Of a stretch of 64,000 nt of DNA, positions 14,629 to 31,447 are shown piece after piece. The translations under genes were made by a program, and so were the position numbers. The stretch's first letter is position 1, and the number at the start of each line of letters is the position of its first letter. The notes under the pieces were generated by a model. It was not told where the DNA came from and did no database searches. It worked only from the letters and a program-made list of their open reading frames with translations. The DNA is taken from assembly GCA_963841195.1 (NCBI GenBank), contig CAWJBX010000014.1, positions 335,914-399,913 on the forward strand. Reading direction: 5' to 3'. This stretch comes from an uncultured Actinomycetes bacterium (GTDB lineage Bacteria > Actinomycetota > Acidimicrobiia > IMCC26256 > PALSA-610).

Positions 14629-17373
14629 TTAGTCGTTCGCGATGGCGCCCGCGAGCGCACGCCGCGAGGTGATGCCGAGTTTTCGGTACACCTTGCGCAA
14701 GTGGTACTCGACCGTGCTGGCGCTGATGAACAATTGCGCTGCGATCTCGGGGTTCGTACCTCCGGCCGCGGCCAGCGCGGCAATCTGGCTCTCTTGCGGC
14801 GTCAAGTCGTCACGAGTTTCGTCAACCCGCTTGCGCGCGGTTTCTCCAGTTGCAAGCAGCTCGACTCGGGCGCGTTCGGCGAACGCAGTGGCGCCCTGTT
14901 CGGTGAACAGATCGAGTGCGAGCCGGAGGAATTCGCGCGCGTCTCGACGCCGTTTCTGGCGCCGGAGCCACTCGCCGTAAAGCAGCTGGGCACGCGCGAG
15001 ATGGAGCATGCCGCCGTTCTCGCGCAGGCAATCGATCGACTCCTGATACTGCGACTCCGCCTCGGAGCCCGCGGCGAGCAGCGCGCGCGACCGCGCCAAA
15101 AGACCCCGCTCGTAGGGCATTTTCGTGGCCACCGCGAGTTCCTCGAGCCAGTCGAGAAATTCGCGGGCGTCGTCGGGTTCGCCCGCCCGCACGCGCGCCT
15201 CGACCGCGTCGGAGCAGATCAACGCGCTCTCGGCGATGTCGTCCTTCCAGCCGTCGGTGACTGCGTTGGTCGCGGCGCGGTAGTTGCCGAGTGAGAGCTC
15301 GAGCGTCCCGATCCCGACGGCGGAGAGCGACGCGCTCCACCCCAGCTGACGTTCGCGGGCGTTCGCTTGAATGAAGGCCGCCGCGGCGCGAGCGCGTTCC
15401 TCGTCGCCCCGCCACGTGAGCACGAGCATCTCGCCGATCGTTCCCGAGTTGTAGATCGACCGCACCTGTTGCAGCACCGCCTCTTCGGCGAAACAGGTAT
15501 CGGCGCGTGCGAGCGTGCCGGCGCGCAGTTCGAGCAATCCGACGTAGTGCAGCGCCTCGCCGAGGTGATTCAAGGCACCCATCGCGCGCGAAAGCGCGAT
15601 GTATTCGTTGCCGAGTTTGAATCCGGCTACGTGGTCGCCGACTGCATAGGCCGCCCAAAGGCCGAACGACATGCGTCTCGGTATTTCCCGCATCGCGGGA
15701 TCGATGAGGATCGCGTCGAGGGCACGACGCAGCACCGGCGCCGCCATTGCCGGACCGGACAAGTAGTACTCCGCGAGACCGTCGAGCACGAGATCGGTCG
15801 ACGTCGGCGCTTCGCCGTCGGGGAGCGGCATCGATTTGGCCGCGCGCGCAACGTCTTGTACGCCGGCCGCCGACCATTTCCCGAACCACACGGACATCAA
15901 GAGCGCGTCGAGCACCGTCTCGCGCGCCTCACGCACGTCGTACGCGTGCAGCGCGTTGGCCGCTTCGAGCATGATCGCGGGTGACTGTCCACCTTTGCCG
16001 AGCGCGAAGTCGATGCCGCCTTCCAGCCGGCGGGCCTGGGCGTTGACGAACGCATCGTTCAACATCGGTTTCGCAAGGTCGAGCGTCGCCCGGGCGTTGA
16101 TCGGCTGGCCCGCGGTGAGATCGGCAGCCGCGGCGCGCAGGAAACGAATGCCACGCGCGGTCGGGTCGGGCGTGAGCTGCGCGGCGCGCGTCAACAACGC
16201 AGCCGTCGACGCGAATCCGCCCTGGTGGCTGGCACGATCGGCGGCGGCGTCGAGCTCGGCGGCGACCTCTTCGTCGGGTGCCAGCGTCGCGGCGGCGCGG
16301 TGCCACGCGTGCCGGTCGGGATCGAGCGCGATTTCGGTTGCTTCCGCGAGTGCGGCATGCGTGCGCCGGCGCTCGCTGTCCTTCGCTCCGTGGTAGATCG
16401 CCTCGCGAATCAGAGGATGGCGAAAACTGATCGGCGGCCCGAAGTTCACAAGGTCGGCCGCTTCGGCTTCTTTCGCCGCGTCTTCGTCGAAATCCAGTGC
16501 CGCACCCACGCGCCAAAGCAGGACCGGATTGCCCGTGGGATCGGCAGCTGCCGCGAGCAAGAGCCGTTGGGTGGGTGGCGGAAGCGCGCGCACTTGGCGC
16601 ATGAAGCGCGTCTCGAGTTGGCGGTCGAACGCAAGCGGCTGCGGGAGCAACGCCGCACCGGGCGACGCGCGTTGTGTCAGTTCGCGAGTGAGTTCGACGA
16701 TCGCGAGCGGGTTGCCGCGCGCGTCGGCAAGCACGCGGGTTCGCATGTCGTCGTCGACCGGACCGCCGACGACTGCTTCCATGAGTTCGACGCATGCGCG
16801 CCGCGTCAGCGGACCGACTTCGAGTGCGGGCAGCCCGTCGACCGCGAGTTCGCGCTCGGTTGGCAACCGAACGCCAATCAGCACACCGATTCGGTCCGCG
16901 TAGAGACGGCGCACGACGAACGCGACCACGCTCTCACTCTCTTGATCGAGCCACTGGGCATCGTCGATCAACAGGAGCAGGCCGCGCTTGGTGGCCGCGG
17001 TGGCCAGCAGCGTCAGCGTCGCGAGCCCGACGAGAAATCGGTCGGCCGCGACCCCGTCACCCAAACCGAACGCCGCACGCAGCGCGTTGGCCTGCGGCTC
17101 CGGCAGCGACGCGACGTCCTCGAGGAACGGCAGCAACAGCTGATGCAGCGCCGCGAAGCGGAGGCTCATCTCCGATTCGATACCGATCACGCGCAGCACA
17201 TCGAGGTCGTCGGCACCGGCGACGACGTCGTCGAGCAACGCCGTCTTCCCGATCCCGGCTTCGCCCCGCACAACCAGCGCGGCGCTCATGCCGGCGCGCA
17301 CCGAAACGAGCACGTCGGCGAGCGCCTGGCGTTCTTCAACCCGCCCGACCAGCTCGATCGCGCACCCGTCCAT
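14629..17373 (-). CDS. Large ATP-binding LuxR (LAL) regulator 1
   Basis: Walker A GEAGIGKT, IDDAQWLD, GNPLA, FRHPL, C-terminal HTH ISASTVEYHLRKVYRKL. Confidence 0.93.
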   Translation of the reverse strand: MDGCAIELVGRVEERQALADVLVSVRAGMSAALVVRGEAGIGKTALLDDVVAGADDLDVLRVIGIESEMSLRFAALHQLLLPFLEDVASLPEPQANALRAAFGLGDGVAADRFLVGLATLTLLATAATKRGLLLLIDDAQWLDQESESVVAFVVRRLYADRIGVLIGVRLPTERELAVDGLPALEVGPLTRRACVELMEAVVGGPVDDDMRTRVLADARGNPLAIVELTRELTQRASPGAALLPQPLAFDRQLETRFMRQVRALPPPTQRLLLAAAADPTGNPVLLWRVGAALDFDEDAAKEAEAADLVNFGPPISFRHPLIREAIYHGAKDSERRRTHAALAEATEIALDPDRHAWHRAAATLAPDEEVAAELDAAADRASHQGGFASTAALLTRAAQLTPDPTARGIRFLRAAAADLTAGQPINARATLDLAKPMLNDAFVNAQARRLEGGIDFALGKGGQSPAIMLEAANALHAYDVREARETVLDALLMSVWFGKWSAAGVQDVARAAKSMPLPDGEAPTSTDLVLDGLAEYYLSGPAMAAPVLRRALDAILIDPAMREIPRRMSFGLWAAYAVGDHVAGFKLGNEYIALSRAMGALNHLGEALHYVGLLELRAGTLARADTCFAEEAVLQQVRSIYNSGTIGEMLVLTWRGDEERARAAAAFIQANARERQLGWSASLSAVGIGTLELSLGNYRAATNAVTDGWKDDIAESALICSDAVEARVRAGEPDDAREFLDWLEELAVATKMPYERGLLARSRALLAAGSEAESQYQESIDCLRENGGMLHLARAQLLYGEWLRRQKRRRDAREFLRLALDLFTEQGATAFAERARVELLATGETARKRVDETRDDLTPQESQIAALAAAGGTNPEIAAQLFISASTVEYHLRKVYRKLGITSRRALAGAIAND

Positions 17374-17484
17374 CGTTTTATTGTTGGCGCCTGCATCGAC
17401 ACGCGCAATGGTGCGTTTTGGCCGCGGACGCCGAGTTCGCGCGCTGAGCAGTTCCGGAGCCGCGGCCCGAAGTCCGCCGGGCCG

Positions 17485-17502
17485 ACTACGTGATCGCGGG
17501 AT
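17485..17502 (+). promoter_or_regulatory. LuxR-type box B (ACTACG-N6-CGGGAT)
   Basis: 22 nt before GAGGCT, then 7 nt to ATG 17538. Confidence 0.7.
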
Positions 17503-17537
17503 TCGAACCCGACGGTCGGCACGCGAGGCTGCCGACC

Positions 17538-17918
17538 ATGTGGAAACGCCGCACCGCACGCACTTCCGAACCGGTCGAGACCGCTGCCTTCTGTGAATGG
17601 GTGGCGAGCCTCCCCTACGTGACCCAGCGCGCTCACGGGTTCTCGTCGACCGTTTCGATCTTCGATATCGACTGCGCACCACTCGAACGGCGCATTACCT
17701 GGCTGATGGTCGACGGCGCGCCGGCCGTCGCCCGCGCGCCGGCGCGCATTTCGACGCTGCTTCCGCGGATGGTTGCCCGAGCGGCCGAACGATCGGGCCT
17801 TGGATGCTGCACCGCGCCTCGGCTCCCCGACCACGTCCTGTTCAGCGTCGACCCGCTCGCGCATCCGCGCGACGTCGAGTCCCTCGTGCTCGCTGCGTAC
17901 GGCGCAGCGATGTCGTGA
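17538..17918 (+). CDS. Hypothetical protein, paralog of 28352-28753 (possible YjbR/DUF5519-like fold)
   Basis: Shares F.EWV.SLP.V..R, C.PL.R...WL and D.E..VL.AYG.A with the paralog. Confidence 0.8.
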   Translation: MWKRRTARTSEPVETAAFCEWVASLPYVTQRAHGFSSTVSIFDIDCAPLERRITWLMVDGAPAVARAPARISTLLPRMVARAAERSGLGCCTAPRLPDHVLFSVDPLAHPRDVESLVLAAYGAAMS

Positions 17919-17954
17919 GCGCGAGTCGACGGCTTCGCTTCGTGAGGTGAAACT

Positions 17955-18953
17955 ATGAAGGTGAGCGAATTCCTCCACGCCCCGCTTCCGGTCAAAGGGC
18001 ACATGCCTGGTTTCGCCGGCACCAACGACTGGCTGAACAGCAAGCCGTTGTCGCCTACCGACCTCCACGGCAAGGTCGTGCTCGTCGACTTCTGGACGTT
18101 TACGTGCATCAACTGGCTGCGGACGCTGCCGGCGCTGCGCGCGTGGAACGACGCGTATGCGAAGCACGGCCTGGTGACCATCGGTGTCCACACTCCGGAG
18201 TTCCAGGTCGAACACGACATCGCGAACGTGCGCCGCGCCGCGCGAGAGATGCGCGTCGAGTATCCGATCGCGATCGACAACGACTACGAGGTGTGGGACG
18301 CGTTCGCGAACCAGTACTGGCCCGCGATATATCTCGCCGACGCCGAGGGTCGCATTCGTCACACGCATTTCGGCGAAGGTGGTGAGGAACGGACCGAGCA
18401 CGTCATCCGCCGGTTACTCACCGACGCGGGCGCAACCGGACTTCCCGAGAGTCCCGTCCCGTACACCGCCGAGGGCATCGAGATCCCCGGCGACTCCCAC
18501 GACCTTCGTTCGGGCGAGACCTACGTGGGGCTCGCGCGGTCGACGGGCTTCGCGTCACCGGAAGGTGCGTCGTTCAACGAGTCGCGCGCGTACACGCTCC
18601 CGCCCCGCCTTTATCTCAACGAATGGGGGCTCGACGGCAACTGGACGATCGGTCGCGAGGAAGCTGTCACCAACGAACCCAACGGCCGCATCGCGTTTCG
18701 TTTTCACGCGCGCGACCTGAACCTCATTCTCGAACCGCCCGCATCGGGCACAAGCGCGCGCTTTCGCGTCACGATCGACGGTGAACCACCGCACGGCGCC
18801 CACGGTCTCGACGTTGACGAGAAGGGCGACGGCATCGTCAGCGAGACGCGCCTGCACCAGCTGATTCGCCAGCACGGGAGCATCACCGACCGGCAGTGTG
18901 AGATCGAGTTCCTGGATCCCGGCGTTTCGGCGCTTTGCTTTACCTTCGGCTAA
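17955..18953 (+). CDS. DipZ-like redoxin (thioredoxin fold plus C-terminal domain), CxxW active site
   Basis: GKVVLVDFWTFTCINWLRTLP, GVHTPEF, NQYWP, HFGEG, ends FTFG. Confidence 0.9.
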   Translation: MKVSEFLHAPLPVKGHMPGFAGTNDWLNSKPLSPTDLHGKVVLVDFWTFTCINWLRTLPALRAWNDAYAKHGLVTIGVHTPEFQVEHDIANVRRAAREMRVEYPIAIDNDYEVWDAFANQYWPAIYLADAEGRIRHTHFGEGGEERTEHVIRRLLTDAGATGLPESPVPYTAEGIEIPGDSHDLRSGETYVGLARSTGFASPEGASFNESRAYTLPPRLYLNEWGLDGNWTIGREEAVTNEPNGRIAFRFHARDLNLILEPPASGTSARFRVTIDGEPPHGAHGLDVDEKGDGIVSETRLHQLIRQHGSITDRQCEIEFLDPGVSALCFTFG

Positions 18954-18969
18954 CCGAGAGGATGCTTCT

Positions 18970-19425
18970 GTGCACGTGTTGATTGCGAGCGATGGCTCGC
19001 GCGCCGCGATCGCGGCCGTTGCCGACGCGATCGCGCAGCTTGCGCCGCCCGAACACGTGACGCTGCTCACCGTGCTGAACGACTTGCCCGTCGAGGACTA
19101 CGACGAGTTCGACGAACCGCTTCCTTCGCCCGAAACACAGCGGCGATCGTGGGACAACGCGATCAAGGAAGCGAATTACGAACTCGAACGCGCGGCCGCG
19201 ACGCTCGCGGCCGGTCACGTCGAGACCCGGGTCGAAGCCGGCGACGTCGCGCCCACGATCTGCACGGTTGCGCGTGAGATCAACGCCGACGTCATCGTGA
19301 TCGGCGCGCAGATGGGCGGGCGCGTTCGGCGCCGATTCCGCACCTCGGTCGCCGAACGCATCGTTCGGGACGCGCCGTGCGCGGTGCTGATCGCGCAAGG
19401 AAAGCGAGATGACGATGGCACATGA
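18970..19425 (+). CDS. Universal stress protein
   Basis: VLIASDGS, ADVIVIGA, SVAERIVRDAPCAVL. Confidence 0.88.
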   Translation: MHVLIASDGSRAAIAAVADAIAQLAPPEHVTLLTVLNDLPVEDYDEFDEPLPSPETQRRSWDNAIKEANYELERAAATLAAGHVETRVEAGDVAPTICTVAREINADVIVIGAQMGGRVRRRFRTSVAERIVRDAPCAVLIAQGKRDDDGT

Positions 19426-20650
19426 CACCGAGGCCTTCGTACTGGGTGGCGCGCGCACGCCGATCGGACGCTACGGCGGTTCGCTCGCACGCGTGCGCAC
19501 CGACGACCTCCTCGCGTTTGCGATGCGCCACGCGGTGGAGCGGGTCGGCATCGAGCCCGGCGTGATTGAAGACATCGCGGCCGGCGTCGTGAACGTCGCG
19601 CACGAAGGAATGGGCGACATCGGCCGTTGGGCCGCACTCGCCGCCGGTTTCCCCGACGACGTTCCCGCGTACACGATCAATCGTTTCTGCGCTTCGTCGC
19701 TGACCGGGACCGCGAACATCGTGAACGCCATCAAAGTCGGTGAGATGGGTGTCGGGATGGCGGCCGGCGTCGAGTCGATGAGCCGGTCGGGCTGGGCGTG
19801 GATGAAGAACGAAGAGCCCTTCGGACCGCGCGGGCCGCAGTTCTTGCTCGACACGATGTGGGCGGGCGCGGGCGGCCCACCGAATCCGCAGCTCCTCGCG
19901 CGCAACGCGTACATCGCGATGATCGAAACCGCGCAGAAGCTCGCCGACATCTACGAACTCACGCGCGAAGAGATCGACGCGTTTGCGCTCCGGTCGCATC
20001 GACACGCGGCCGCGGCCCAAGCGAGCGGCCGCCTCGCGCGCGAGATCGCCCCGATCGACGTTCCCGCCGAGCGCCACACGACCCGTCGCTTCGAACACGA
20101 CGAGTTCATTCGCCCCGACGCATCGCTCGAAGCCCTTGCGAAGTTGCCGGCCCAACCGAACACGACGCAAATGACAGCCGGGAACTCATCCCCACTTTCG
20201 GACGGCGCGAGCGCGGTCGTGCTCGCGAATGAAGCCCGCGCCGGCGCGCTCGGCGCAGCACCGATGGCGCGCGTGCTCGCGTCGGCGACGGTCGCCGTCG
20301 ACCCGACGATCATGGGTATCGCGCCCGCGTACGCGATCCCGAAGGCGCTGGCGCGTGCCGGGGTCGAACCGGAAGACGTCGATGTGTACGAGATCCACGA
20401 AGCATTCGCAGCGCAAGCGCTCGCGGTGTTGCGCGAATTCCCGAAACAGACCGGCTACACGATCCCTGACGAAAAGCTGAATCCCAACGGTGGCGCAGTC
20501 GCGCTCGGCCATCCGTTCGGCGATTCGGGGACGCGGTTGGTGTTGTCGCTGGCGACCGAACTTGCGGTCACCGGCAAGCGGTACGGCGTGATCGGCGTGT
20601 GCGTCGGCTCGGGCCAGGGCGTCGCGCTCGTGCTCGAGCGCGTGGCGTAA
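19409..20650 (+). CDS. Thiolase (acetyl-CoA acyltransferase)
   Basis: RTPIG, NRFCASS, HEAFA, GHPFG, CVGSGQG. Confidence 0.93.
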   Translation: MTMAHDTEAFVLGGARTPIGRYGGSLARVRTDDLLAFAMRHAVERVGIEPGVIEDIAAGVVNVAHEGMGDIGRWAALAAGFPDDVPAYTINRFCASSLTGTANIVNAIKVGEMGVGMAAGVESMSRSGWAWMKNEEPFGPRGPQFLLDTMWAGAGGPPNPQLLARNAYIAMIETAQKLADIYELTREEIDAFALRSHRHAAAAQASGRLAREIAPIDVPAERHTTRRFEHDEFIRPDASLEALAKLPAQPNTTQMTAGNSSPLSDGASAVVLANEARAGALGAAPMARVLASATVAVDPTIMGIAPAYAIPKALARAGVEPEDVDVYEIHEAFAAQALAVLREFPKQTGYTIPDEKLNPNGGAVALGHPFGDSGTRLVLSLATELAVTGKRYGVIGVCVGSGQGVALVLERVA

Positions 20651-20656
20651 CTCGCC

Positions 20657-21139
20657 TTATCCGTAAACGACCCGGGTGACCCATTCGGCAACGAGCGCGG
20701 GCTTGTCTTCGCCGTCGATCTCGACGGTGAAGCTCCGCGTCAGGTCGATCGCGCTGCCCTTGAGCTCGACGTTCGTGGTCACACCCCGGGCGCGGATACG
20801 CGATCCAACCTTCACCGGATTCACGAAGCGCACCTTGTTGAAGCCGTAGTTGATGCCCATCAACATGCCCGCGTACTTCGCCGGGTCGGGAGCCGCCGAA
20901 CTCGCTCCTTGCGAGAGGTGCGTAAGCATCGACAGCGTCAAGAAGCCGTGCGCGATGGTGGTGCCGAACGGGGTTGCCTTCGCGCGCTCCGGGTCGACGT
21001 GAATGAACTGGTGGTCGTGGGTGACGTCGGCGAACTGGTTGATTTGGTCCTGGGTGACCTCGAACCAGTCGCCGGTTCCTTCGTCGTTGCCGATATCGGC
21101 CTGAAACAGGGGGAACGCCTTCTCGGCAGCTTCGCTCAT
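20657..21139 (-). CDS. MaoC-family dehydratase
   Basis: FADVTHDHQFIHVD..TIAHGFLTLS, NYGFNKVRF. Confidence 0.92.
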   Translation of the reverse strand: MSEAAEKAFPLFQADIGNDEGTGDWFEVTQDQINQFADVTHDHQFIHVDPERAKATPFGTTIAHGFLTLSMLTHLSQGASSAAPDPAKYAGMLMGINYGFNKVRFVNPVKVGSRIRARGVTTNVELKGSAIDLTRSFTVEIDGEDKPALVAEWVTRVVYG

Positions 21140-21173
21140 GCGGCGACCTTAGAGCAGCGCCCGGCTATCCGAA

Positions 21174-21191
21174 ACTACGCGGGCGCGGGAT
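21174..21191 (+). promoter_or_regulatory. LuxR-type box C (ACTACG-N6-CGGGAT)
   Basis: 22 nt before CAACCT, upstream of the alpha/beta hydrolase. Confidence 0.7.
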
Positions 21192-21249
21192 GCGACCACT
21201 CGTTCATGGGGCGCAACCTCTGCGTGTCATCACACGACTGGAGCCGCAC

Positions 21250-21981
21250 ATGACCGTTACACCCTCGACCTCAGGACCGAACGTCGTCCTCGTGCACGGC
21301 GCCTTCGGCGACGCGTCCGGCTGGGCGGGCGTCATCAACGAACTCTGCGCGGCGGGCGTCAACGTCGTTGCACCGCCGAACCTGCTGCGCGGGCTGATCT
21401 CCGACGCCGCCTACATCACGAGCTTCCTCAAGCAGCTCGGCGGCCGCAACATCCTCGTCGGCCACTCCTACGGTGGCGCGGTGATCACGCAGTCGGGCGC
21501 CGACGCCGGCAACGTTGTCGGGCTCGTGTACGTGAACGCGTTCGGCCCCGACGCCAAGGAATCGCTCGGCGCGATCGGTGATCGTTACGCCGACCGTGGG
21601 CTGGGCGCGGCGCTGCGTCCGCTCACCTACCCGACCGACGGTCAGCCCGGCACTGAGCTGTACGTCGACCACGACGCGTTCCACGAAGTGATCTGTGCCG
21701 ACGTGTCCGCCGAGACGGCGCGCGTGCTCGCGCTGACGCAACGGCCCGTCGCAGCGTCGGTCTTCCAGGAAGAGCTCACGTCGACACCCGCGTGGAAGAC
21801 GTTGCCCTCGTGGGCCGTCATCTCGACCGGTGACCACGCGATCAACCCCGATGCGGAGCGCGACATGGCGAAACGCGCGAACGCCGAGTATGTCGAGACC
21901 AACGGCGCCCACTTCATCATGGTTTCGCAACCGTCGACCGTCGCCGAACAGATTCTGCGCGCCGTGAAGGCAACGAGCTAA
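21250..21981 (+). CDS. Alpha/beta hydrolase
   Basis: VLVHGAF, GHSYGG nucleophile elbow, D and H triad residues. Confidence 0.92.
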   Translation: MTVTPSTSGPNVVLVHGAFGDASGWAGVINELCAAGVNVVAPPNLLRGLISDAAYITSFLKQLGGRNILVGHSYGGAVITQSGADAGNVVGLVYVNAFGPDAKESLGAIGDRYADRGLGAALRPLTYPTDGQPGTELYVDHDAFHEVICADVSAETARVLALTQRPVAASVFQEELTSTPAWKTLPSWAVISTGDHAINPDAERDMAKRANAEYVETNGAHFIMVSQPSTVAEQILRAVKATS

Positions 21982-21990
21982 GACGACGCG

Positions 21991-22215
21991 ATGACAGATC
22001 CGACGTTCGCGCAGGACATCAAGCCGTTGTTCCGCGAGAAAGACCGCGACTCGATGACCTTCATGTTCGACCTCTGGTCGTACGACGACGTGCGCAAGAA
22101 CGCGCCGGCGATCCTCACGATCGTGAAGGAAGGCCGCATGCCGTGTGACGGCCCATGGCCCGACGATCGCGTCGATCTCTTCGAACGTTGGACCGAAACC
22201 GGCATGAACGCGTGA
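21991..22215 (+). CDS. Small hypothetical protein (74 aa)
   Basis: TFAQDIKPLFR..FDLWSYDDV..GRMPCDGPW..LFERW; good codon usage. Confidence 0.8.
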   Translation: MTDPTFAQDIKPLFREKDRDSMTFMFDLWSYDDVRKNAPAILTIVKEGRMPCDGPWPDDRVDLFERWTETGMNA

Positions 22216-22308
22216 CGATCCCGAAAGGAGATCGCGAATGAGTTCCGTATCCAGCGTTACGCCTGAAGGCCCCGGTTCGGTGACCTGAGCGCCGGCGCAA
22301 CGCCTCGC

Positions 22309-22352
22309 GTTTGGACGTTTCGCGCCCCTATAGGGGCGCGAAACGTCCAAAC
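22309..22352. repeat. Perfect 44-bp spacer-less palindrome
   Basis: gtttggacgtttcgcgccccta|taggggcgcgaaacgtccaaac. Confidence 0.95.
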
Positions 22353-22369
22353 CCCGCGGTTTCGAGCGA

Positions 22370-23107
22370 TCAGCCGGTGAGCGCGAGCTCGCGTTCGTCG
22401 GCCAGCGCGCGCAGCTTGTCGGAGCTCGCGGCCAGCAGCCGCGAGACCTGCATCTGGCTCACGCCGATCTCACGCGCGATCGCGGTCTGCGAGAGGTCGG
22501 CGTAGTAACGCATCTTGACGATGCGGCGCTTGCGTTCGTCGAGTCCGGCGAGCAGCTCGTCGACGAGCACGCGGTCGTCGGCCGCGTTGATGTCGTGCTG
22601 CGCCGGGATTTGCGCCGCTCCTGATTCGTCGATGCTCCGGCCTTCGTAACGCCGGTACGCGTGCATCACCGTTTGCGCTTCCTCGACCTCATCGCGCGTC
22701 CAGCCGCCTGCATCGGCAAGTTCGTCAACCGTCGGTTGGCGCCCGCAGGCGTTGGTCAACTGCTCCGACGTCGCGACGACGTGCAGCGCGCGCTCTCCGA
22801 CGGAACGCGGCGGGCGCACGATCCACGTGTGGTCGCGGAGGTGCCGCTTCAACGTGCCGGCGATCGTCGGCGCCGCGAATGTCGAGAATGTGACGCCCCG
22901 CTCGGGGTCGAAGCGTTCGACCGCACGCGTCAGACCGATCAACGCAACCTGACGCAGGTCGTCGCGTTCTTCGCCGCGGCCCTCGAAACGGCGCGCGATC
23001 GAATAGGCGAGACCGAGGTGCGCTTCGACCAGCTTGTCGCGCAAGCGGCTGTCGCCGGTTGCACGAAATTCGTCGAAAACGGCGGTCATGGAACGGCGCT
23101 CGGACAT
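22370..23107 (-). CDS. SigB/SigF-family RNA polymerase sigma factor
   Basis: DDLRQVALIGL..AVERFDP.RG..FSTFA.PTI.G.LKRHLRD; SQT.IA..IGVSQMQVSRLL. Confidence 0.93.
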   Translation of the reverse strand: MSERRSMTAVFDEFRATGDSRLRDKLVEAHLGLAYSIARRFEGRGEERDDLRQVALIGLTRAVERFDPERGVTFSTFAAPTIAGTLKRHLRDHTWIVRPPRSVGERALHVVATSEQLTNACGRQPTVDELADAGGWTRDEVEEAQTVMHAYRRYEGRSIDESGAAQIPAQHDINAADDRVLVDELLAGLDERKRRIVKMRYYADLSQTAIAREIGVSQMQVSRLLAASSDKLRALADERELALTG

Positions 23108-23142
23108 GAGACTCACGCTTTCATGTGGGGGCGTTACCGGAC

Positions 23143-23160
23143 ATCACGCGAACACGTGTG
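23143..23160 (-). promoter_or_regulatory. LuxR-type box F (CACACG-N6-CGTGAT)
   Basis: 22 nt before AAGCGT, then 7 nt to the sigma ATG 23107. Confidence 0.7.
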
Positions 23161-23195
23161 CATCGACGACGGTACGCACATGCCCCTTTCGTCGA

Positions 23196-23213
23196 ATCCC
23201 CGGCTCGCGTAGT
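23196..23213 (-). promoter_or_regulatory. LuxR-type box E (ACTACG-N6-GGGGAT)
   Basis: 21 nt before TACCGT; second, upstream promoter of the sigma gene. Confidence 0.7.
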
Positions 23214-23241
23214 TCGCCCCGCCGGAACGCCAAAACACGAA

Positions 23242-23259
23242 ACTACGCGTCTGAGGGAT
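23242..23259 (+). promoter_or_regulatory. LuxR-type box D (ACTACG-N6-AGGGAT)
   Basis: 22 nt before CAACAT, upstream of the epoxide hydrolase. Confidence 0.7.
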
Positions 23260-23314
23260 GCGACACCGCTTGACTTGGGCGCAACATGAGGGCACCACAG
23301 CGAGGAGGACCCCC

Positions 23315-24538
23315 GTGACGAACACGACGACAACGAAGCCGCGGAGCACCAGCACGGCCGACACCAGCATCCGACCGTTTCGCGTGCACTTCGCCGACGA
23401 GGACCTCGCCGAGCTGCGCCGCCGTATTGCCGCGGCGCGTTTGCCGCATCGCGAGCTCGTCGAGGACCGGTCGCAAGGCGTGCAACTGGCGACCGTCGAG
23501 GCGCTCGCACGGTATTGGACGACGGAATACGACTGGCGGCGCTGCGAAGAACAACTGAACGCCCTGCCGCAGTTCGTCACCGAGATCGACGGCGTCGACA
23601 TTCACTTCATTCACGTGAAGTCGCAACACCCGAACGCACTGCCGTTGATCATGACGCACGGCTGGCCCGGCTCGGTGATCGAACTGCTCGGCTCGATCGG
23701 CCCGCTCACCGATCCCACTGCACACGGCGGCCGCGCCGAAGACGCGTTCGATCTCGTGCTGCCCTCGATGCCCGGCTACGGCTTCTCGAGCGAACCGGCT
23801 GAGACCGGTTGGGCGACGCCGCGCATCGCGAAAGCCTGGGACGAACTCATGGGCCGACTCGGCTACACGCGTTACGTCGCCCAGGGCGGCGACCAAGGCG
23901 CGGCCGTGACCGACGACCTCGGCCACCTCGCACCCAAGGGACTCGTCGGAATCCACATGAACTTGCTGCGCGCCGCGCTCGGGCCGGTGAGTCTCGCGTC
24001 GGCGAATCCGACCGACGAGGAGAAGGTCGCGCTCGCGGGGCTGGCGACGTTCAACACGAGTGGACGCGGTTACTTCCTCGAGCAGGCGACGCGCCCGCAA
24101 ACGATCGGGTACGCACTGCTGGATTCACCGCTTGCAATGGCGGCGTGGATTCTCGATCACGACACCGACAGCTACGAGAAGATCGCGCGTGCGTTCGTCG
24201 ACGGAACTCCGACGGGCGGCCTCACACGCGATCACGTGCTCGACAACATCACGATGTACTGGCTCACCGGAACCGGCGCATCGGCGGCGCGTTCCTACTG
24301 GGAAGGAGCGCAAGCCGGCGCGCGCGCGAAGGGGCAGACGCCGACCCCGGTGCAAGTGCCCGTTGGCTTTACGCAGTTCCCGGGCGAGATCTTCCTGCCG
24401 CCGCGCAGTTGGGTCGAGAAGCTGTATCCGCACGTCACGTACTACAACAAGGCCGCCCGGGGCGGACACTTCGCGGCATGGGAAGAGCCGGAACTCTTCG
24501 CCGAGGAACTGCGGGCCGCGTTCGCGGCCGTGCGCTAA
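23315..24538 (+). CDS. Epoxide hydrolase (EHN plus alpha/beta fold)
   Basis: IRPFRV, YDWRR, HGWPGS, QGGDQG, GGHFAAWEEP; GAGGAGG RBS. Confidence 0.94.
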   Translation: MTNTTTTKPRSTSTADTSIRPFRVHFADEDLAELRRRIAAARLPHRELVEDRSQGVQLATVEALARYWTTEYDWRRCEEQLNALPQFVTEIDGVDIHFIHVKSQHPNALPLIMTHGWPGSVIELLGSIGPLTDPTAHGGRAEDAFDLVLPSMPGYGFSSEPAETGWATPRIAKAWDELMGRLGYTRYVAQGGDQGAAVTDDLGHLAPKGLVGIHMNLLRAALGPVSLASANPTDEEKVALAGLATFNTSGRGYFLEQATRPQTIGYALLDSPLAMAAWILDHDTDSYEKIARAFVDGTPTGGLTRDHVLDNITMYWLTGTGASAARSYWEGAQAGARAKGQTPTPVQVPVGFTQFPGEIFLPPRSWVEKLYPHVTYYNKAARGGHFAAWEEPELFAEELRAAFAAVR

Positions 24539-24572
24539 CAGCGCACGGCCGCCGCAACGCGCCCAGAGAACG

Positions 24573-25223
24573 CTAGAGAACGTCGACGCGGTCGACGACC
24601 TTCTGGACACCGGGCGCGTCCCACGCGGTCGACTCGGCTTCGTCGCGCGTGGTCCACGAGTCGGCGGTGCCGTCGAGGTACACCGTCGAGCCGACGTTCG
24701 ACACGGTGATGCGCGTGTCGTCGATGATTGCGTTGCGCTTGAACGCCTTGTTGATGCGGTCGGCGATGTCGCTCGGAATCGGTTCACTCGAGATGCCGAT
24801 GTTGTCGGTCATGCCGAGCACACCGTCGACCTTGCGCACCGCGTGTTCGGCTGCTTGGCGTTCGAAGTGGTGACGCACTTGGCCGCTCAATGTGACATAG
24901 CCCTCGAGCACGTCGGCGCTTACGGCTCCCTTCGGGACGAACTTGTCGCCGTCGAGTGCGTTCGCTGCGGCCACTGCGATTTCAGCGTCAGTGACGGCAT
25001 CACCAACGAGGCCCACGAGGATCTGGTTGTCGATGCCCTTCACACCTCGGACCTTGGAGGCGTCGTCGCATGCACGCTCGACTTGCAAGAGGGTCGGTAC
25101 CGATCCGGTGAGCGTTACTGTGCCGTCGTCGGCTTTGACGACGATGCGCGTGGCGTCGACTTGCGGATCCCATTCGAGCTCGTCTTTCACGTCGTGTTCC
25201 AGGAGGTTGTTCGGCTTGTGCAT
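24573..25223 (-). CDS. BON domain protein (three BON repeats, OsmY-like)
   Basis: Three G.V.L.G...GV..V/I repeats. Confidence 0.92.
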   Translation of the reverse strand: MHKPNNLLEHDVKDELEWDPQVDATRIVVKADDGTVTLTGSVPTLLQVERACDDASKVRGVKGIDNQILVGLVGDAVTDAEIAVAAANALDGDKFVPKGAVSADVLEGYVTLSGQVRHHFERQAAEHAVRKVDGVLGMTDNIGISSEPIPSDIADRINKAFKRNAIIDDTRITVSNVGSTVYLDGTADSWTTRDEAESTAWDAPGVQKVVDRVDVL

Positions 25224-25292
25224 GGCGGAGCTGTCCTTTTCTCGTCAGGGTTTCGGGAACCCCAAACGATGGACGCCACGAAAGCCGCCAAC

Positions 25293-25310
25293 ATCACGCG
25301 AGCACGTGAA
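25293..25310 (-). promoter_or_regulatory. LuxR-type box G (TTCACG-N6-CGTGAT)
   Basis: 21 nt before CATCGT; acatcacgcgagcacgtg (25291-25308) is 17/18 identical to 23141-23158. Confidence 0.7.
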
Positions 25311-25316
25311 AGCACT

Positions 25317-28095
25317 TCAGGAAAGTTGCGGACTCCCGACGCGCTTGGGGAGCGCGTCTTTCAAACCGCGGCGCGACGTGATGCCGAGCTTGGTGAACAC
25401 CTTGCCGAGGTGCCATTCCACCGTGCGGGAACTGATGTAGAGCTCGGCCGCGATCTCGGGGTTGGAGCGACCGTCGCGGGCGAGCCGCGCGATGTGTTCT
25501 TCTTGTGGTGTCAGCTCGCTCCGCGTGTCGTCTTGACGCTTGCGGACGTGCTCGCCCGTCGCCGCGAGCTCCAAGCGCGCTCGTTCCGCAAAGCCATCCG
25601 CACCGATCAACACGAACATCTCGTGGGCGGTACGCAAGTGTTCGCGGGCGTCGACGCGACGATGCTCCCGGCGTAGCCATTCGCCGTAAAGCAAATGGGC
25701 ACGGGCCAGTTCGGTTCGAATGCGGGTGCGGCCGAGTCGTTCGATGGCTTCTCGATAGAGGCCGTCGGCGACGTCGCCGACGGCCAGCAACGCCCGCGAA
25801 CGGGCGGCAACACCGAGCCCCCAGTCGCCGCTCTCAGGTTGTACCGCGTCGAGAAATTCGCGGAGCGCGTTGGCGGCCTCGTCGGACTGCCGGCATCGCA
25901 CCGCCGCTTCGATACGTTCGGGAAGCATCCACGTCGAGATGTAGAGCCCCGGGGTCTCGCGGCTTGCAGGCGACGCGGCGCGAAGTGCCTCTGCGTACTG
26001 GCCCGAGCCGTTGTTCAAGATCGCGGAGGTCCAGCGCGCAAGGTCGACGCCGAGGCCTTCGCCTCGTTCGATCGAATCGGAGATGGTCGTCGCGATCAAC
26101 GTCGTCGCGTCCTCGATACGCCCTTGGTACGCGGCAAGCAACATTGCTCCGTACGGCGCGATCTTGGTGCCGGTCGCCTGTTTGAGCGCGTTGTCTTCTT
26201 CGACCAACGCGGTTGCGGTCTCGAAGTCACCGGCCCACACCGCGATCATCGCGTGACCGTTCAACGCAACCGACAACAGCGCGAGCGCACCGACGTCGCG
26301 CGCGTACCTCACTTGGCGGCCGCTTGTTTCGCTCCAACTGTCGAAGTCCCAAAGCGTCACCGCGGCCGACGACGCGAGCACACCCCAATGCAACCAATCG
26401 GCGAGAGCCGCATCACCCTTGACGAGAGCGTCTACAGCGCCGCGCAAGACGGGCGCGGCGGCCGCGCGGCCTTCGGTAATCAAGATCGCGAAGCCGTCGA
26501 GCAAGTCGTCGAACGGTCCCATCGGTTTCGGAGGCCGCGGCGCGGCCTTCGCCGCCCGCGAAACCTCGACGAGGTTGCCGGCTTTGTTTGCGAGATGGCC
26601 GGCGAAGAGCGCAGCCCCCCACGCGTCGAGATAGGTCTGGCGCGCGAGAACGATGTCGAGCGGTTCGAGACGCGCCGCTGCCTTCAAGAGTTGAAAGGGC
26701 GCTTCGCTTCCCGCGCTCGCAGCTGACGCGACCAGACCGCGCAACAACTCGATACGGGCGCGCGTCAATTCCTGCGTTGATTCGAACTCGGCTGCAGTCA
26801 ACAGCGTCGACGCTTCGTCGAAGACGCCCGCTTGCAGTTTCGACTGCGCCGCCGCGAGCCGCCGTTCGACGCGTGCCGCGCCGTCGGGTGTGAGCAGCGC
26901 CGACCGTTCCAACAATGCGGCTGCCGCGGCCAAGCCGCCCCGCGTTTGCGCCCGCCCCGCGCAAAGCTCGAGTTCGGCGGCGATCGCCTCGTCGGGTTCG
27001 GAGGCCGCGTGGGCGCGATGCCACGCGCGCCGATCGGGATCGGTTTCGGCGTCGATCACATCCGCGAGCGCGCGATGCGCGGCTTGGCGGTCGGCTTCGG
27101 ACGCGGCGCGGTATGCCGCCGATCGCACGAGCGGGTGACGGAAGCTCACGCGGACGCCGATTTCGAGGAGTTGTTCGTTCGCGGCGGCGCGCGCCGCATC
27201 CGGATGAATGCCGAGCGCATCGGCGGCGCGCCGCACCGTTGTCGCGTCTCCGACCGAGTCGGCCGCGGCCAACAGCATCAGTTGTTGCGCGGGCGCGGGC
27301 AGCGTGCGTATCCGTTTCACATAGTGGTCTTCGAGCTGCTCGGTAAGGCCGCCCGCGATCGGAAGGCCGAAACCACCTGCAAGTTCGGCGTGGGTCATGC
27401 CGCGCGTGGAGCTCGAGCAACGCGAGCGGGTTGCCGCGCGTATCACTCACGATCCGATCGCGCACACGTTCATCGAGCCGGCCCGGCACGGCGGTGGAGA
27501 GCAACGCGCGTGCGTCGTCTTGCGACAGCCCTTCGACGAGCAGCTCCGGCAGACCGGTGAACGCGCCGGCGGCGCGCCACTCGCGCACGGCGACGATCAT
27601 TCCCACCGACTCCGCCACCAACCGCCGCGCGACGAACCCCAGCACTTGGTGCGACGCGTCGTCGAGCCATTGCGCGTCGTCGATCAGGACGACGAGCGCG
27701 CGTTCTTCCGCGACCTGCGCGATCAACGTCAGTGTGGCGAGGCCGACGAGAAACGGATCGGGTGCGTTTCCGTAGGAAATCCCGAAGGCGGTGGCGAGTG
27801 CGTCACGTTGCGGTTCGGGCAAGGCGTCGAGGGCGTCGAGCATGGGCGCGCACAGCTGATGCAGGGCCGCGTACGCCAACTCCATTTCTGACTCGACGCC
27901 GCTGATCTCCGCGACACGAACCTCCGGGGCCGCGCACTCGGCGGCGTAGCGCAGCAACGCCGATTTGCCCACGCCCGCTTCGCCACGAATTACGAGCGTC
28001 TCGCTGTGACCGGCCCGAACTTCGCGCAGCAGCCGGTCGAGCACCGCACGTTCGTCTTGACGACCGCGCAGCGCCGCGACGGACTCCCCGGCCAT
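25317..28095 (-). CDS. Large ATP-binding LuxR (LAL) regulator 2 (frameshift near 27408)
   Basis: GEAGVGKS, IDDAQWLD, GNPLALLEL in one frame; FRHPL and HTH ISSRTVEWHLGKVFTKL in another. Confidence 0.9.
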
Positions 28096-28351
28096 GTCGA
28101 AAAACTAGTAGCGAATGACGCAATCCGACAGAGCCTCACGTAACGCGCGTCGAGCCGCGCGTGCCGCCGTTCAGGATGCGAACGCGCTTCCTCAGGTATG
28201 CCTAGGGAGATGACGCGCTTCTACGCGTGCACCCCAGTGTGCGCATTCGACACACGGGGGCCCGGGACCAGTGACCGGCCCGGGTGCGACCGGAACCCCG
28301 TGCTGTCAACGTAAGGAGCACATTCCGATCGTTCTTTTCGAGGAGGGCACG

Positions 28352-28753
28352 ATGCTCCGCCGCCGTGAGTCCCGGTCCGCGCCGCCGACAACCGTCGCAC
28401 CGGCGTTCGCGGACTTCCACGAGTGGGTGTTGAGCCTGCCCTGGGTGGTCGAACGGCCGTACAGCGTCGGCACTCCGGGCGTCCGGTGCTTCGCGGTCGA
28501 GTGTGAACCCCTTGCCCGGCACCAGCTCTGGCTGATCACCGGAATCCAACGGCAGCTCGACATGGCCGGCATCGGCCTCGCCGTCATCATTCCGAAAACA
28601 GTTGCGAACGAACTCGAAGCCGCCGACCGCGCCCAGGTCTTGGCGCCGATGGCCGGCCGCAACGTTCTCGTCACCCTGCACGGGGCCGCAATGGGCAGCC
28701 GCCAGGACCTCGAAGCGGTGGTGCTGACCGCCTACGGCTGCGCGCTGGCGTGA
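28352..28753 (+). CDS. Hypothetical protein, paralog of 17538-17918
   Basis: GAGGAGG RBS; full-length alignment with the paralog. Confidence 0.8.
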   Translation: MLRRRESRSAPPTTVAPAFADFHEWVLSLPWVVERPYSVGTPGVRCFAVECEPLARHQLWLITGIQRQLDMAGIGLAVIIPKTVANELEAADRAQVLAPMAGRNVLVTLHGAAMGSRQDLEAVVLTAYGCALA

Positions 28754-28794: not shown

Positions 28795-29061
28795 ATGACC
28801 AATGTTGACCTCGAGACGCGTGGCACGCGCCGGCGCCGGCCCGCGATCGGATGGACGAGCCTGACCGAATCGGAACGGGCGCTGGCCGTATTGATTTCCG
28901 AAGGCATGACAAATCGCCAGGCGGCCGAACGGCTCTACATCTCGCGCCACACCGTCGACGCGCACTTGCGGCACATCTTCGCCAAGTTGGGCATCAACTC
29001 GCGCGTGGGTTTGGCGCGACTCGTCGCCGTCCACATGTACGCCGGTGCGGACACGCTGTAG
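28795..29061 (+). CDS. Stand-alone LuxR HTH protein
   Basis: GWTSLTESE..GMTNRQAAERLYISRHTVDAHLRHIFAKL; GGAGG RBS. Confidence 0.9.
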   Translation: MTNVDLETRGTRRRRPAIGWTSLTESERALAVLISEGMTNRQAAERLYISRHTVDAHLRHIFAKLGINSRVGLARLVAVHMYAGADTL

Positions 29062-29161: not shown

Positions 29162-31447
29162 ATGTCGAGGTCGCGGCCGAGGATCACACGCACCGCACTG
29201 TTTGCGATCGCGATGAGCATCGCGCTCGTCGTAACCGCCCTGTCAGCAGCACAGGCCTCCGCCGGCCCGTCGACGTTCACGGCGGTCGGGAGTGCCGAGC
29301 AGGTTTACGTCACGGGTCTCGCACCGAACGCGTCGGCGTCGCTCGTGACGCACTCTGGAAAGACGCTTTACACGCAGAACGCCGACCCGCTGGGCGGCTT
29401 GCTGTTCCGCGAAGTGCCGCCCGGAATGGGCTATCGCGTGCGCCGAAACTCCGACGGAACCGAATCCGGTCAGATCACCGTGCACTCGGACGCGGCCATG
29501 CCGTGGCACACGGACTTCTACACGCAACCGATCGCCGACACGGGTTACCAGTACCTCACGACGCGCGACGGAACGCAGCTCGCGGTTGACGTTCACCTGC
29601 CGATCAACGGCGCGACTGCTCCCTACCCGACCTTGGTCGAGTACGCGGGCTACGGCTACGCCGATCCGAACGGACCCGACAGCGGAATTTCGCTGCTCGC
29701 GAACGTCATGGGCTTCGCAGTCGTCGACGTCAACATGCGCGGCACCGGCTGCTCCGGCGGTGCGTTCGACTACTTCGAGAAGTTGCAAGACCTCGACGGC
29801 TACGACGTCATCGAAACGGTCGCGCACCAGCCGTGGGTGAAGAACCACAAGGTCGGCATGATGGGCATCTCCTACGGCGCCATCAGCCAGTTGTTTACCG
29901 CGCAACTCAACCCGCCGGATCTCGCGGCGATCTCTCCGCTGTCGACGATCGACGCAACCGCGAGCACGCTGTATCCCGGCGGCATTTTGAACACCGGCTT
30001 CGCACTGCAATGGGCGCAGGAGCGTATTCACGATGCCGAACCCGCCGGACCGAACACCGGGCAGTCGTGGGCATACAAGCGGATCCAAGCCGGCGACACG
30101 ACGTGCGCGAACAACCAGGTGCTGCACGGTGAAGCCGCCGACCTCAACGCCAAGATCGCGGCCAACACGCATTACACCCCGGCCGTTGCCGACCCGCTCG
30201 ACCCGGTGACGTTCGTGAAGAACATCAAGGCGCCGGTGTTCCTGGCTTGCCAGTGGCAGGACGAACAAACGGGCGGTCACTGCCCCGACCTCGTGCAGCA
30301 TTTCACCGGGACGAACCAGAAGTGGTTCACGTTCACGAACGGCGTGCACGGCGATTCGCTCGACCCGGCGACGTTCAACCGCTGGTACGACTTCTTGGAG
30401 CTGTTCGTCGCGCAGCAAGCGCCGAAGACGAACGCGGCGTTCCCACGGTTTGCGGCGCCGATCGTCTATCAAACCGCGTTGGGTGTGCCGAGCGGCGACT
30501 CGATCACGCTGCCGCCGGATCCGATTCAATCGATTCCGACGTATAACGACGCGTTGGCCGCGTTCGAGAAGCTCCCGCGCGTGCGCGTGCTCTTCGACAA
30601 CGGCGCCGGCCAATCGCCGACGAACAACGCGCAACCTGGCGATCCGTACGCGGGTTACGAGCAAGACTTCTCGACGCTTCCCATTCCGGGAACGATTGCG
30701 CGCACGTGGTTCTTCGGGCGCGGTGGCACCCTCACCGGCCTCCCGTCCTGGGTACCTTCGCGAAGCACGTTCACAGCGAACGCGAACGCGGTACCGCTCA
30801 CCGACTACACCGGCGGCACCGGCTCGGGTGGCTTGTGGGGCAACGCTTCCCAGTGGACATGGAACTGGCAGCAGAACCCGAAAGGCACGTCAGCGTCGTA
30901 CGTTTCCGCGCCCCTGACTGGGAACACGACGGTGATCGGCGGAGGCGCCGTCTACCTGTGGGTGAAGTCGTCGACACCCGATGTCGACCTGCAGGCGACG
31001 GTCAGCGAAGTGCGGCCCGACGGCAACGAGACCTTCGTGCAGAACGGTTGGTTGCGTGCGAGCGAACGCAAGCTCTCGTTCGGTTCGAACAACATGTTCA
31101 AGCAACCGAGCACGTACGTCGACCCGATCCCGACGTTCACGGCGTCCGACGCGGCTCCCATGCCGAAGGGCAGGTACGCGCTGGTGACAATTCCGTTGTA
31201 CTTCGAAGGCCACGCGTATCGCGCGGGGTCGCGCATCCGGGTGACGATTGCAGCACCGAACGGCACGCAACCGGTGTGGTCGTTTGGGCAGACCGTTCCG
31301 TCGGGCACTGCGAAGGTGTCGATCACGTCTTCGTTGTTCGCGCCCTCGAGCCTGGTGCTCCCGGTCGTTCCCGGCGTGAGCGTTCCGACGCCGCTTCCGT
31401 CGTGTTCGAGCTTGCGCAACGAACCGTGCCGGACGTACGTGCGGTAA
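29162..31447 (+). CDS. Secreted CocE/NonD family hydrolase (peptidase S15)
   Basis: Signal peptide, TRDGT.L, NMRGTGCSGG, GISYG, C-terminal HAYRAGSRIR. Confidence 0.9.
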   Translation: MSRSRPRITRTALFAIAMSIALVVTALSAAQASAGPSTFTAVGSAEQVYVTGLAPNASASLVTHSGKTLYTQNADPLGGLLFREVPPGMGYRVRRNSDGTESGQITVHSDAAMPWHTDFYTQPIADTGYQYLTTRDGTQLAVDVHLPINGATAPYPTLVEYAGYGYADPNGPDSGISLLANVMGFAVVDVNMRGTGCSGGAFDYFEKLQDLDGYDVIETVAHQPWVKNHKVGMMGISYGAISQLFTAQLNPPDLAAISPLSTIDATASTLYPGGILNTGFALQWAQERIHDAEPAGPNTGQSWAYKRIQAGDTTCANNQVLHGEAADLNAKIAANTHYTPAVADPLDPVTFVKNIKAPVFLACQWQDEQTGGHCPDLVQHFTGTNQKWFTFTNGVHGDSLDPATFNRWYDFLELFVAQQAPKTNAAFPRFAAPIVYQTALGVPSGDSITLPPDPIQSIPTYNDALAAFEKLPRVRVLFDNGAGQSPTNNAQPGDPYAGYEQDFSTLPIPGTIARTWFFGRGGTLTGLPSWVPSRSTFTANANAVPLTDYTGGTGSGGLWGNASQWTWNWQQNPKGTSASYVSAPLTGNTTVIGGGAVYLWVKSSTPDVDLQATVSEVRPDGNETFVQNGWLRASERKLSFGSNNMFKQPSTYVDPIPTFTASDAAPMPKGRYALVTIPLYFEGHAYRAGSRIRVTIAAPNGTQPVWSFGQTVPSGTAKVSITSSLFAPSSLVLPVVPGVSVPTPLPSCSSLRNEPCRTYVR

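Follow-up and report, generated by a model that had tools for sequence, protein, structure and literature searches.

A very divergent YjbR/MmcQ-like small-protein family with a recurrent but loose link to STAND-class regulators in soil Actinomycetota

Why should a small gene of no annotated family stand head-to-head with a large transcriptional regulator twice within a short stretch of one bacterial genome? The stretch in question, called the window below, is the whole 64,000 nucleotides at positions 335,914 to 399,913 of contig CAWJBX010000014.1 (assembly GCA_963841195.1, an uncultured actinobacterium of the Acidimicrobiia), with a G+C content of about 66%. Two of its genes encode LAL proteins, i.e. 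STAND-type LuxR regulators (LAL1 and LAL2), and each of them diverges from a small gene, S1 and S2, respectively. A preliminary description, made from the letters of the sequence, suggested that the pairing is maintained and that the small protein may be a dedicated LAL partner in a two-gene signalling unit. Our analysis gives the S1/S2 family, which is unannotated, a fold assignment and a sequence signature, and indicates that its link to STAND regulators is real and recurrent, but loose: the genes are associated through regulation and do not form a fixed pair.

S1 and S2 can be aligned over their whole length with 41/134 identical positions (31%, E 8e-18), and the columns that the preliminary description had listed as invariant, one Cys among them, reappear in the alignment. 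They are the only copies in the source genome (4.96 Mb in 21 contigs, 74% complete), the third match having an E value of 0.43. Neither protein matched a Pfam or NCBIfam model at E≤1. PADLOC returned no defence-system match for S1 or S2 and did not place them in an anti-phage STAND (Avs-like) system; LAL1 and the 88-aa GerE protein encoded next to S2 match CARF3 models there through the helix-turn-helix (HTH) only. In a 5.8-billion-protein collection, 181 of 202 candidates belonged to the family at E≤0.01, and 144 representatives were obtained at 50% identity. All matches are unnamed or "hypothetical" proteins, and the named sources are Actinomycetota or Acidimicrobiia metagenome-assembled genomes. 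The family is one of soil Actinomycetota and is patchily distributed, with members in 21 of 264 same-order genomes.

The conservation within the family is concentrated in a few positions. Among 95 members taken from the loci described below, W25 and P30 are retained in 94/95, E34, C51 and P53 in 93/95, R45, F47, L29 and L54 in 92/95, W60 in 91/95 and Y128 in 90/95; the family signature reads W..SLPWVVER ... (V/I)DC(E/P)PL..R..WL.TG ... AY. The N-terminal 20 residues or so (M-x-R-R-R) are basic and predicted to be disordered. At L096:6001-6402 a Tyr replaces the near-invariant Cys (VDYEPL) and another member has Phe; because of these replacements, either the Cys is not strictly essential or the Tyr and Phe copies are decaying. 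In the clade of L049-L053 and L166, a second Cys follows five residues after the conserved one (DCPPLxC), forming a C-x4-C pair. Candidates for a fusion with another domain were set aside: P0179, P0180 and P0236 seem to have been extended N-terminally in the wrong frame (gene-call artefacts), P0212 is a SpaA-repeat protein, and P0192, a GNAT-like N-terminus with half a small domain, is not credible.

What fold does this signature belong to? The AlphaFold2 (AF2) models of S1 (pLDDT 88.7, pTM 0.79) and S2 (pLDDT 84.8, pTM 0.76) share one topology, a helix, four strands, a helix, two strands and a helix, which is that of a double wing. When the models were searched all-against-representatives, the top three structures for both were three solved PF04237 proteins. 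S2 matched 2a1v with a Z score of 10.1 (root-mean-square deviation, rmsd, 3.0 over 105 residues), 2fki with 9.1 and 2kfp with 8.6, and S1 matched 2a1v with 11.4, followed by 9.5 and 9.2 for the other PF04237 structures. The next-ranked structures were a frataxin-like YdhG protein, VP1028, the C-terminal domain of T4 MotA (Z 5.7-5.9) and CyaY, with frataxins at Z 5-7. Foldseek also placed 2a1v first (E 0.016, TM 0.50), an hhalign comparison of the family profile with 20 YjbR proteins from related genomes gave a probability of 70.9% (E 3.8e-5, 100 columns), and the top three ESM Atlas clusters were all PF04237 (score 0.86), which we take as a lead only. The sequences themselves lie far from the known family. 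The PF04237 gathering score (30.1 bits) was not reached by S1 or S2, a profile search of PDB sequences returned nothing at E≤10, and among 47 distant members scanned there was one YjbR match, below the cut-off (E 0.031). The models thus indicate that the family has the YjbR/MmcQ "double-wing" (CyaY-like) fold, of which it forms a very divergent branch, and it is separate from PF04237, because the genome also holds a true PF04237 gene elsewhere (C14:206695, C14 being the contig of the window). The YjbR/MmcQ guess of the preliminary description is thereby borne out, whereas the DUF5519 half of that guess is not supported: PF17648 (luciferase domain, DUF5519-like) did not match S1 or S2, and hhalign against seven PF17648 proteins gave a probability of 0.1%. 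Matches to PF17648 below the threshold occurred in 7/47 distant members (E 0.002-0.08).

How often does such a protein stand beside a LAL gene? We assembled 104 family loci, namely 2 from the window, 23 from same-order genomes (two of them from one genome, G063), 7 from species-representative genomes and 72 from metagenomes. Fragmentary matches of 36-50 residues (L054, L055 and L056) were dropped from the same-order set, and the metagenome loci, scanned with a closer family alignment, lie mostly on contigs of 1-3 kb and include four pairs with identical small proteins. Neighbours were called with a crude codon-usage gene caller, scanned with Pfam and checked by tblastn with both LALs. A LAL gene is the direct neighbour in 7/104 loci and in three orientations: head-to-head in S1, S2 and L039, convergent in L046, and co-directional about 30-60 bp 3' of the small gene, in an operon-like manner, in L115, L126 and L151. 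Five loci carry instead a SARP+BTAD+NOD (AfsR-like) regulator head-to-head with the small gene (L131, L132, L142, L143 and L151; gaps of about 90-130 bp), and L151 combines this arrangement with the LAL gene on its 3' side. In six further loci (L048, L049, L086, L135, L154 and L166) a LAL lies no more than about 2.5 kb away, and MalT-type TPR fragments were found in L097 (about 3.3 kb away) and L106, so that a STAND regulator or such a fragment lies within about 3.3 kb in roughly 19/104 loci. By a rough estimate from about 8 LALs in 4.96 Mb, a random place falls within 500 bp of a LAL gene in about 0.2% of cases. Set against this expectation, 7/104 direct LAL neighbours make an excess that is far above chance, and it is large even though the loci are related.

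The linkage to STAND regulators that the preliminary description proposed to look for is therefore found. As a property of the family, the two-gene unit is not supported: only 3/104 loci have the adjacent head-to-head LAL, two of them in the window itself, and the count is 0 among the 36 metagenome loci whose contigs extend 700 bp or more upstream. Since regulator neighbours occur only in a minority of loci, the association is a loose one.

A quick tree of the small proteins shows where the association is kept. The STAND link recurs in separate, well-supported clades, with 3/3 members in the S1 clade, 2/2 for L049 and L166, and 4/4 in a SARP-linked clade. In the S2-like crown the regulator-linked members are scattered; they include S2 and its sister L039, which have an identical layout with the LAL head-to-head and a small GerE gene downstream. 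The earlier idea of a maintained pairing thus holds within lineages, in that a LAL lies near all three S1-clade members and the S2 layout is shared with L039. It does not extend to co-evolution with LALs. In a tree of the LAL N-domains, 11 small-adjacent LALs are interleaved with four source-genome LALs that have no such neighbour, LAL1 and LAL2 are not sisters, and, as far as these sequence trees go, there is no sign that LALs and small proteins have diversified together; the trees are incongruent. At least 7058 relatives of LAL1 were found at E≤1e-30 among 8000 candidates scored, outnumbering the 181 small-family clusters at least 40-fold, which rules out that the small protein serves LALs in general as a partner. 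The LAL1 orthologues P0329-P0333 are 66-71% identical to LAL1. S1 and S2 belong to different lineages, as do LAL1 and LAL2; hence the repeat seen in the window did not arise by a recent tandem duplication of one such pair, and the preliminary description had also judged the copies too diverged for that.

Both regulators have the expected LAL architecture of about 915 aa, with an AAA_16 NTPase, a TPR region and a C-terminal GerE HTH. In the assembly, LAL2 is split into two frames, the AAA_16 part at 26413-28095 and the GerE part at 25317-27446, the break being due to a single additional base near 27405-27407. In a public soil run (X1; single contig, depth 3.5), a 224-base contig is otherwise identical and leaves out one base at 27407; LAL2 is therefore probably intact in nature, and the frameshift is probably an indel of the assembly or else a variant of the strain. 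No RNA run was listed among the public runs that contain this stretch. Several more LAL genes are also multi-frame or carry stops (L039:7538-10331, L046:7591-10396 and, in the source genome, G000:C3:2054-4585 and G000:C14:404768-407453, the last lying just beyond the window end); either these are assembly indel errors or LAL genes decay frequently. In the 4.96 Mb of the source genome, 12 matched pieces correspond to about 8 LAL genes, 6 of which have no small-family neighbour; GerE domains number 36.

The features of the two modules are collected in Table 1.

Table 1. Features of the two LAL/small-gene modules (window coordinates, 5' to 3' of the forward strand) and small GerE genes of the recurrent operon
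Feature	Position	Strand	Remarks
LAL1, STAND-type LuxR regulator, 914 aa	14629..17373	-	AAA_16 E 3.5e-15, weak TPR_12, GerE E 1e-15
LAL1/S1 divergent intergenic region	17374..17537		164 bp between start codons; both promoters presumed here
S1, small protein of 126 aa	17538..17918	+	YjbR/MmcQ-like predicted fold, unannotated family
AhpC/TSA + Thioredoxin_10 thiol-redox protein	17955..18953	+	36 bp 3' of S1
Universal stress protein (USP)	18970..19425	+	strand as S1
Thiolase	19409..20650	+	start overlaps end of USP gene
Group-3-like sigma-70 factor	22370..23116	-	regions 2, 3 and 4; lies between the modules and is given as context
BON-domain protein	24573..25223	-	just 3' of LAL2
LAL2, LAL regulator	25317..28095	-	two frames in assembly; AAA_16 E 1.5e-20, GerE E 1.8e-12
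LAL2/S2 divergent intergenic region	28096..28351		256 bp; putative promoter region
S2, paralog of S1, 133 aa	28352..28753	+	
Stand-alone GerE/LuxR HTH protein, 88 aa	28795..29061	+	41 bp after S2; 4-bp overlap if GTG at 28750 is the start
S15 (X-Pro dipeptidyl-peptidase family) hydrolase	29213..31447	+	
Small GerE genes of the recurrent operon	window 28795-29061; L086:6341-6712; L103:779-1051; L104:2067-2420; L117:685-936		

The ATG of S2 is preceded by a GAGGAGG ribosome site 6 nt away, and the S15 hydrolase gene may close the S2 operon. Regulators are dense in this region, with 7 of the 36 GerE-domain genes of the genome lying within C14:320-407 kb, an 87-kb stretch made up of the window and its flanks. 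Elsewhere in the window there are an HD_5-GerE regulator (1230-2864), a GAF-SpoIIE (PP2C) phosphatase (6182-7927), and glyoxalase and MDMPI_N genes. The phosphatase, together with the sigma factor between the modules, suggests a partner-switching stress pathway in the region. Genes resembling that sigma factor gene lie near small genes in L043 and L147, and STAS or anti-sigma-kinase-like genes near family members in L044, L115, L147 and L171. A trio of MoxR AAA+ ATPase, DUF58 and VWA genes on the minus strand (33646-36640) is a MoxR-type system of the usual kind and has no bearing on the small-gene family.

Who, then, are the regular neighbours of the small gene? The most regular companion is a small GerE regulator of 83-124 aa, not a LAL. 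Such a gene lies directly 3' of the small gene in S2, L039, L086, L103, L104, L105 and L117; longer GerE proteins take this place in L093 and L116, and GerE proteins of 381-394 aa stand head-to-head with the small gene in L050 and L051. The recurrent order is the small YjbR-fold gene, a GerE gene of about 87 aa and usually a DUF308 membrane protein gene. The 88-aa GerE protein has a tight family of its own, with a 77%-identical paralog (P0274) on the contig of the window. Among the matches listed, 11 of its family have a longest contig of exactly the same size as that of an S2-like match, which suggests that both genes lie on one and the same contig; a few such contigs measure only 1-1.3 kb.

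Stress and redox genes make up much of the remaining context. USP and DUF308 genes recur near family members, as do an aldo-keto reductase with a 3-hydroxyisobutyrate-dehydrogenase-like gene, OsmC, superoxide dismutase, a Pyr_redox_2 disulfide reductase with MDMPI_N, nitroreductase, pirin, hemerythrin and HtrA, and BON genes are found in L032, L033, L086, L093, L105, L110, L114, L120, L133 and L154. An alpha/beta-hydrolase gene lies directly 3' of the small gene in 8/72 metagenome loci (L102, L106, L107, L108, L110, L112, L113 and L125) and also in L032 and L045. GAF-HisKA_3 kinases and NarL-type response regulators are among the neighbours as well. The window and the family neighbourhoods have the gene content of a general stress island. 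A hemerythrin gene was seen near the small gene in L049, together with a LAL, and upstream of it in L170; a triad of LAL, hemerythrin and small gene considered for L166 was rejected, as the intervening open reading frame is unrelated to the L049 hemerythrin (E 21).

A sequence motif, CAGTC[G/A]TTTG(G/C)C.GAAGC, occurs 70-140 bp 5' of 8/32 family genes (L032, L033, L037, L039, L086, L086b, L093 and L094) and is absent upstream of S1 and S2. The source genome has one match to it, as against six for a reversed control pattern; the motif thus defines no regulon there and was discarded as a regulon marker. In other lineages it may belong to an operator or a promoter.

What could the small protein do in these settings? 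We tentatively favour a facultative role in STAND/LuxR-superfamily transcription circuits, in which it would be a small accessory or relay protein. S1 would head a stress-type operon with the thiol-redox protein, USP and thiolase genes, and S2 one with the 88-aa GerE regulator and the S15 hydrolase genes. The promoter region of each putative operon would be common to the divergent LAL, which may control it. A STAND regulator would then drive the small gene from the common promoter region, or the two would be co-transcribed, a logic similar to that of AfsR and AfsS. The small protein, in turn, might act on regulators or targets through its predicted double-wing surface, by protein-protein and possibly protein-DNA contacts, and the near-invariant Cys could be a thiol switch that provides a thiol-based input.

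Several observations weigh against such an accessory role. No STAND regulator was found at about 85/104 loci, many of them on contigs of only 1-3 kb, and kinship among the loci causes the counts to overstate their independence. The commonest neighbours are non-regulatory and would fit a plain regulon member equally well. The small-adjacent LALs are not monophyletic, strongly supported branches forcing at least three changes, and the closest relative of LAL1 in the LAL tree, the L166 LAL (60% identity), has as its neighbour a small protein from another clade. The longer family matches included no credible case of the small domain fused to a regulator. The folded core is acidic (median net charge -4), an argument against simple binding to DNA. 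Much of this also bears on the main rival explanation, possible if doubtful, by which the family is an ordinary stress-regulon effector, for example thiol-dependent, metal-handling or chaperone-like, and the regulators adjoin it as neighbours of a target operon in a regulator-rich region. The mostly stress and redox neighbours, here AhpC/TSA-thioredoxin, USP and BON, are consistent with an effector, as are the retained Cys, the frataxin-like folds among the structural matches, the acidic core, the clustering of GerE genes around the window and the lack of co-diversification with LALs, and an effector explains the majority of contexts equally well. It accounts poorly for the operon-like orders in which a LAL (L115, L126 and L151) or a GerE gene follows the small gene, leaves the link to two unrelated STAND DNA-binding classes in separate clades unexplained, and has no evident catalytic motif or cofactor site to point to. 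That link is what a broader and unlikely proposal takes up, namely that the family is a new class of trans-acting modulators of STAND (NLR-like) transcription factors. A small YjbR-fold thiol-switch protein would bind the NOD/TPR module of a LAL or SARP-NOD regulator, or a GerE domain, and tune activation; its presence beside two unrelated DNA-binding classes of STAND regulators and beside stand-alone GerE proteins would therefore be explained. In a narrow search of the published literature, no paper was found that describes a YjbR-like protein as the partner or the target of a LAL or SARP regulator.

The obligate unit of the preliminary description, in which the small protein is a ligand- or redox-sensing partner dedicated to the adjacent LAL, is improbable. 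Two head-to-head pairs in one window, the layout kept in the S2 orthologue L039, the LAL near every S1-clade member and the single conserved Cys argue for it, whereas the rarity of the head-to-head arrangement across the census, the variable orientation, the incongruent trees, the at least 40-fold larger number of LAL relatives and the LAL genes of the genome that have no small gene beside them argue against it. A complex prediction for S1 with LAL1 residues 1-850 (GerE excluded) scored 0.00 against a mark of 0.32 and carries no weight either way. Very improbable, too, is a DNA-binding factor that would use the double-wing surface as the MotA C-terminal domain does, i.e. a small transcription or nucleoid-associated factor. 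The MotA match, the basic N-terminal tail and the resemblance to YjbR, a predicted DNA binder, are suggestive of it; against it stand the charge of the folded core and the lack of a conserved basic patch among the residues identified, and for YjbR itself DNA binding is only predicted in the part of the source at hand (PMC7641849). That the two window pairs are a chance adjacency with no functional meaning is extremely improbable: regulators are dense here and a LAL is missing next to most homologues, but the direct LAL neighbours exceed the random expectation, five SARP-NOD neighbours come on top, and the association recurs in several clades. Of these explanations, the facultative accessory or relay role fits the data best. 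STAND/NLR-like factors (LAL, AfsR-type) are, to our knowledge, the largest and least understood regulators of Actinomycetota, their input signals being mostly unknown. A conserved small protein that recurs with two STAND DNA-binding classes would offer a handle on how some of them are switched or relay their output. Even a modest reading yields a fold and a signature for an unannotated family, its stress-island context and a recurrent operon of small gene, GerE gene and DUF308 gene.

How does the family compare with known systems? The closest structural relatives are the YjbR/MmcQ proteins (PF04237, formerly DUF419; 2a1v, 2fki and 2kfp/3h9x), for which a CyaY-like "double-wing" fold is given in the available portion of the YjbR source (PMC7641849). 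The models of S1 and S2 have the same fold (Z 8.6-11.4, rmsd 2.6-3.4 Å over 97-110 residues), and the family shares with YjbR/MmcQ a similar size, a Tyr within the final helix and an "LP...E" motif that follows helix 1. It differs in that S1 and S2 are only 6-15% identical to the solved structures and fall below the Pfam threshold. The His-rich loop of actinobacterial YjbR proteins is not conserved in the family alignment (the preliminary description had also noted a lack of the His residues of that fold), and the elements W..SLPWVVER, (V/I)DC(E/P)PL and WL.TG give the S1/S2 family a signature of its own.

For the genetic arrangement, the nearest parallel is AfsR-AfsS of Streptomyces, in which afsS adjoins afsR. 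There, a STAND-class factor is genetically coupled to a small-protein gene, and five loci of the present family stand head-to-head with AfsR-like regulators. As far as the excerpted sources describe it, AfsR (SARP-NOD-TPR) activates afsS, the gene for a small regulator acting further downstream (PMC10936776), and a coupling of the STAND regulator to the small regulator is likewise described (PMC2267785). Unlike the S1/S2 proteins, AfsS is "sigma-like" by description and not YjbR-like; in the present family, the regulator is mostly a LAL with a GerE HTH and the link is facultative. A mechanistic precedent for a protein partner comes from the LuxR superfamily. MalT is inhibited by MalY, Aes and MalK, of which Aes is an alpha/beta-hydrolase. 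The alpha/beta-hydrolase gene found 3' of some small genes recalls Aes, a curiosity that we do not count as evidence. Proteins, small or of unrelated kinds, that modulate a regulator of the LuxR superfamily or STAND class by binding it would by analogy be a template for a partner role, and the parts of the literature at hand name TraM, QslA and QteE as protein anti-activators of LuxR-type regulators, and RapF acting on ComA (PMC13043044, PMC5767178, PMC3246441). Among LAL regulators (MalT-like), finally, LAL1 and LAL2 are ordinary members of a very large family, and only their small-gene neighbour sets them apart.

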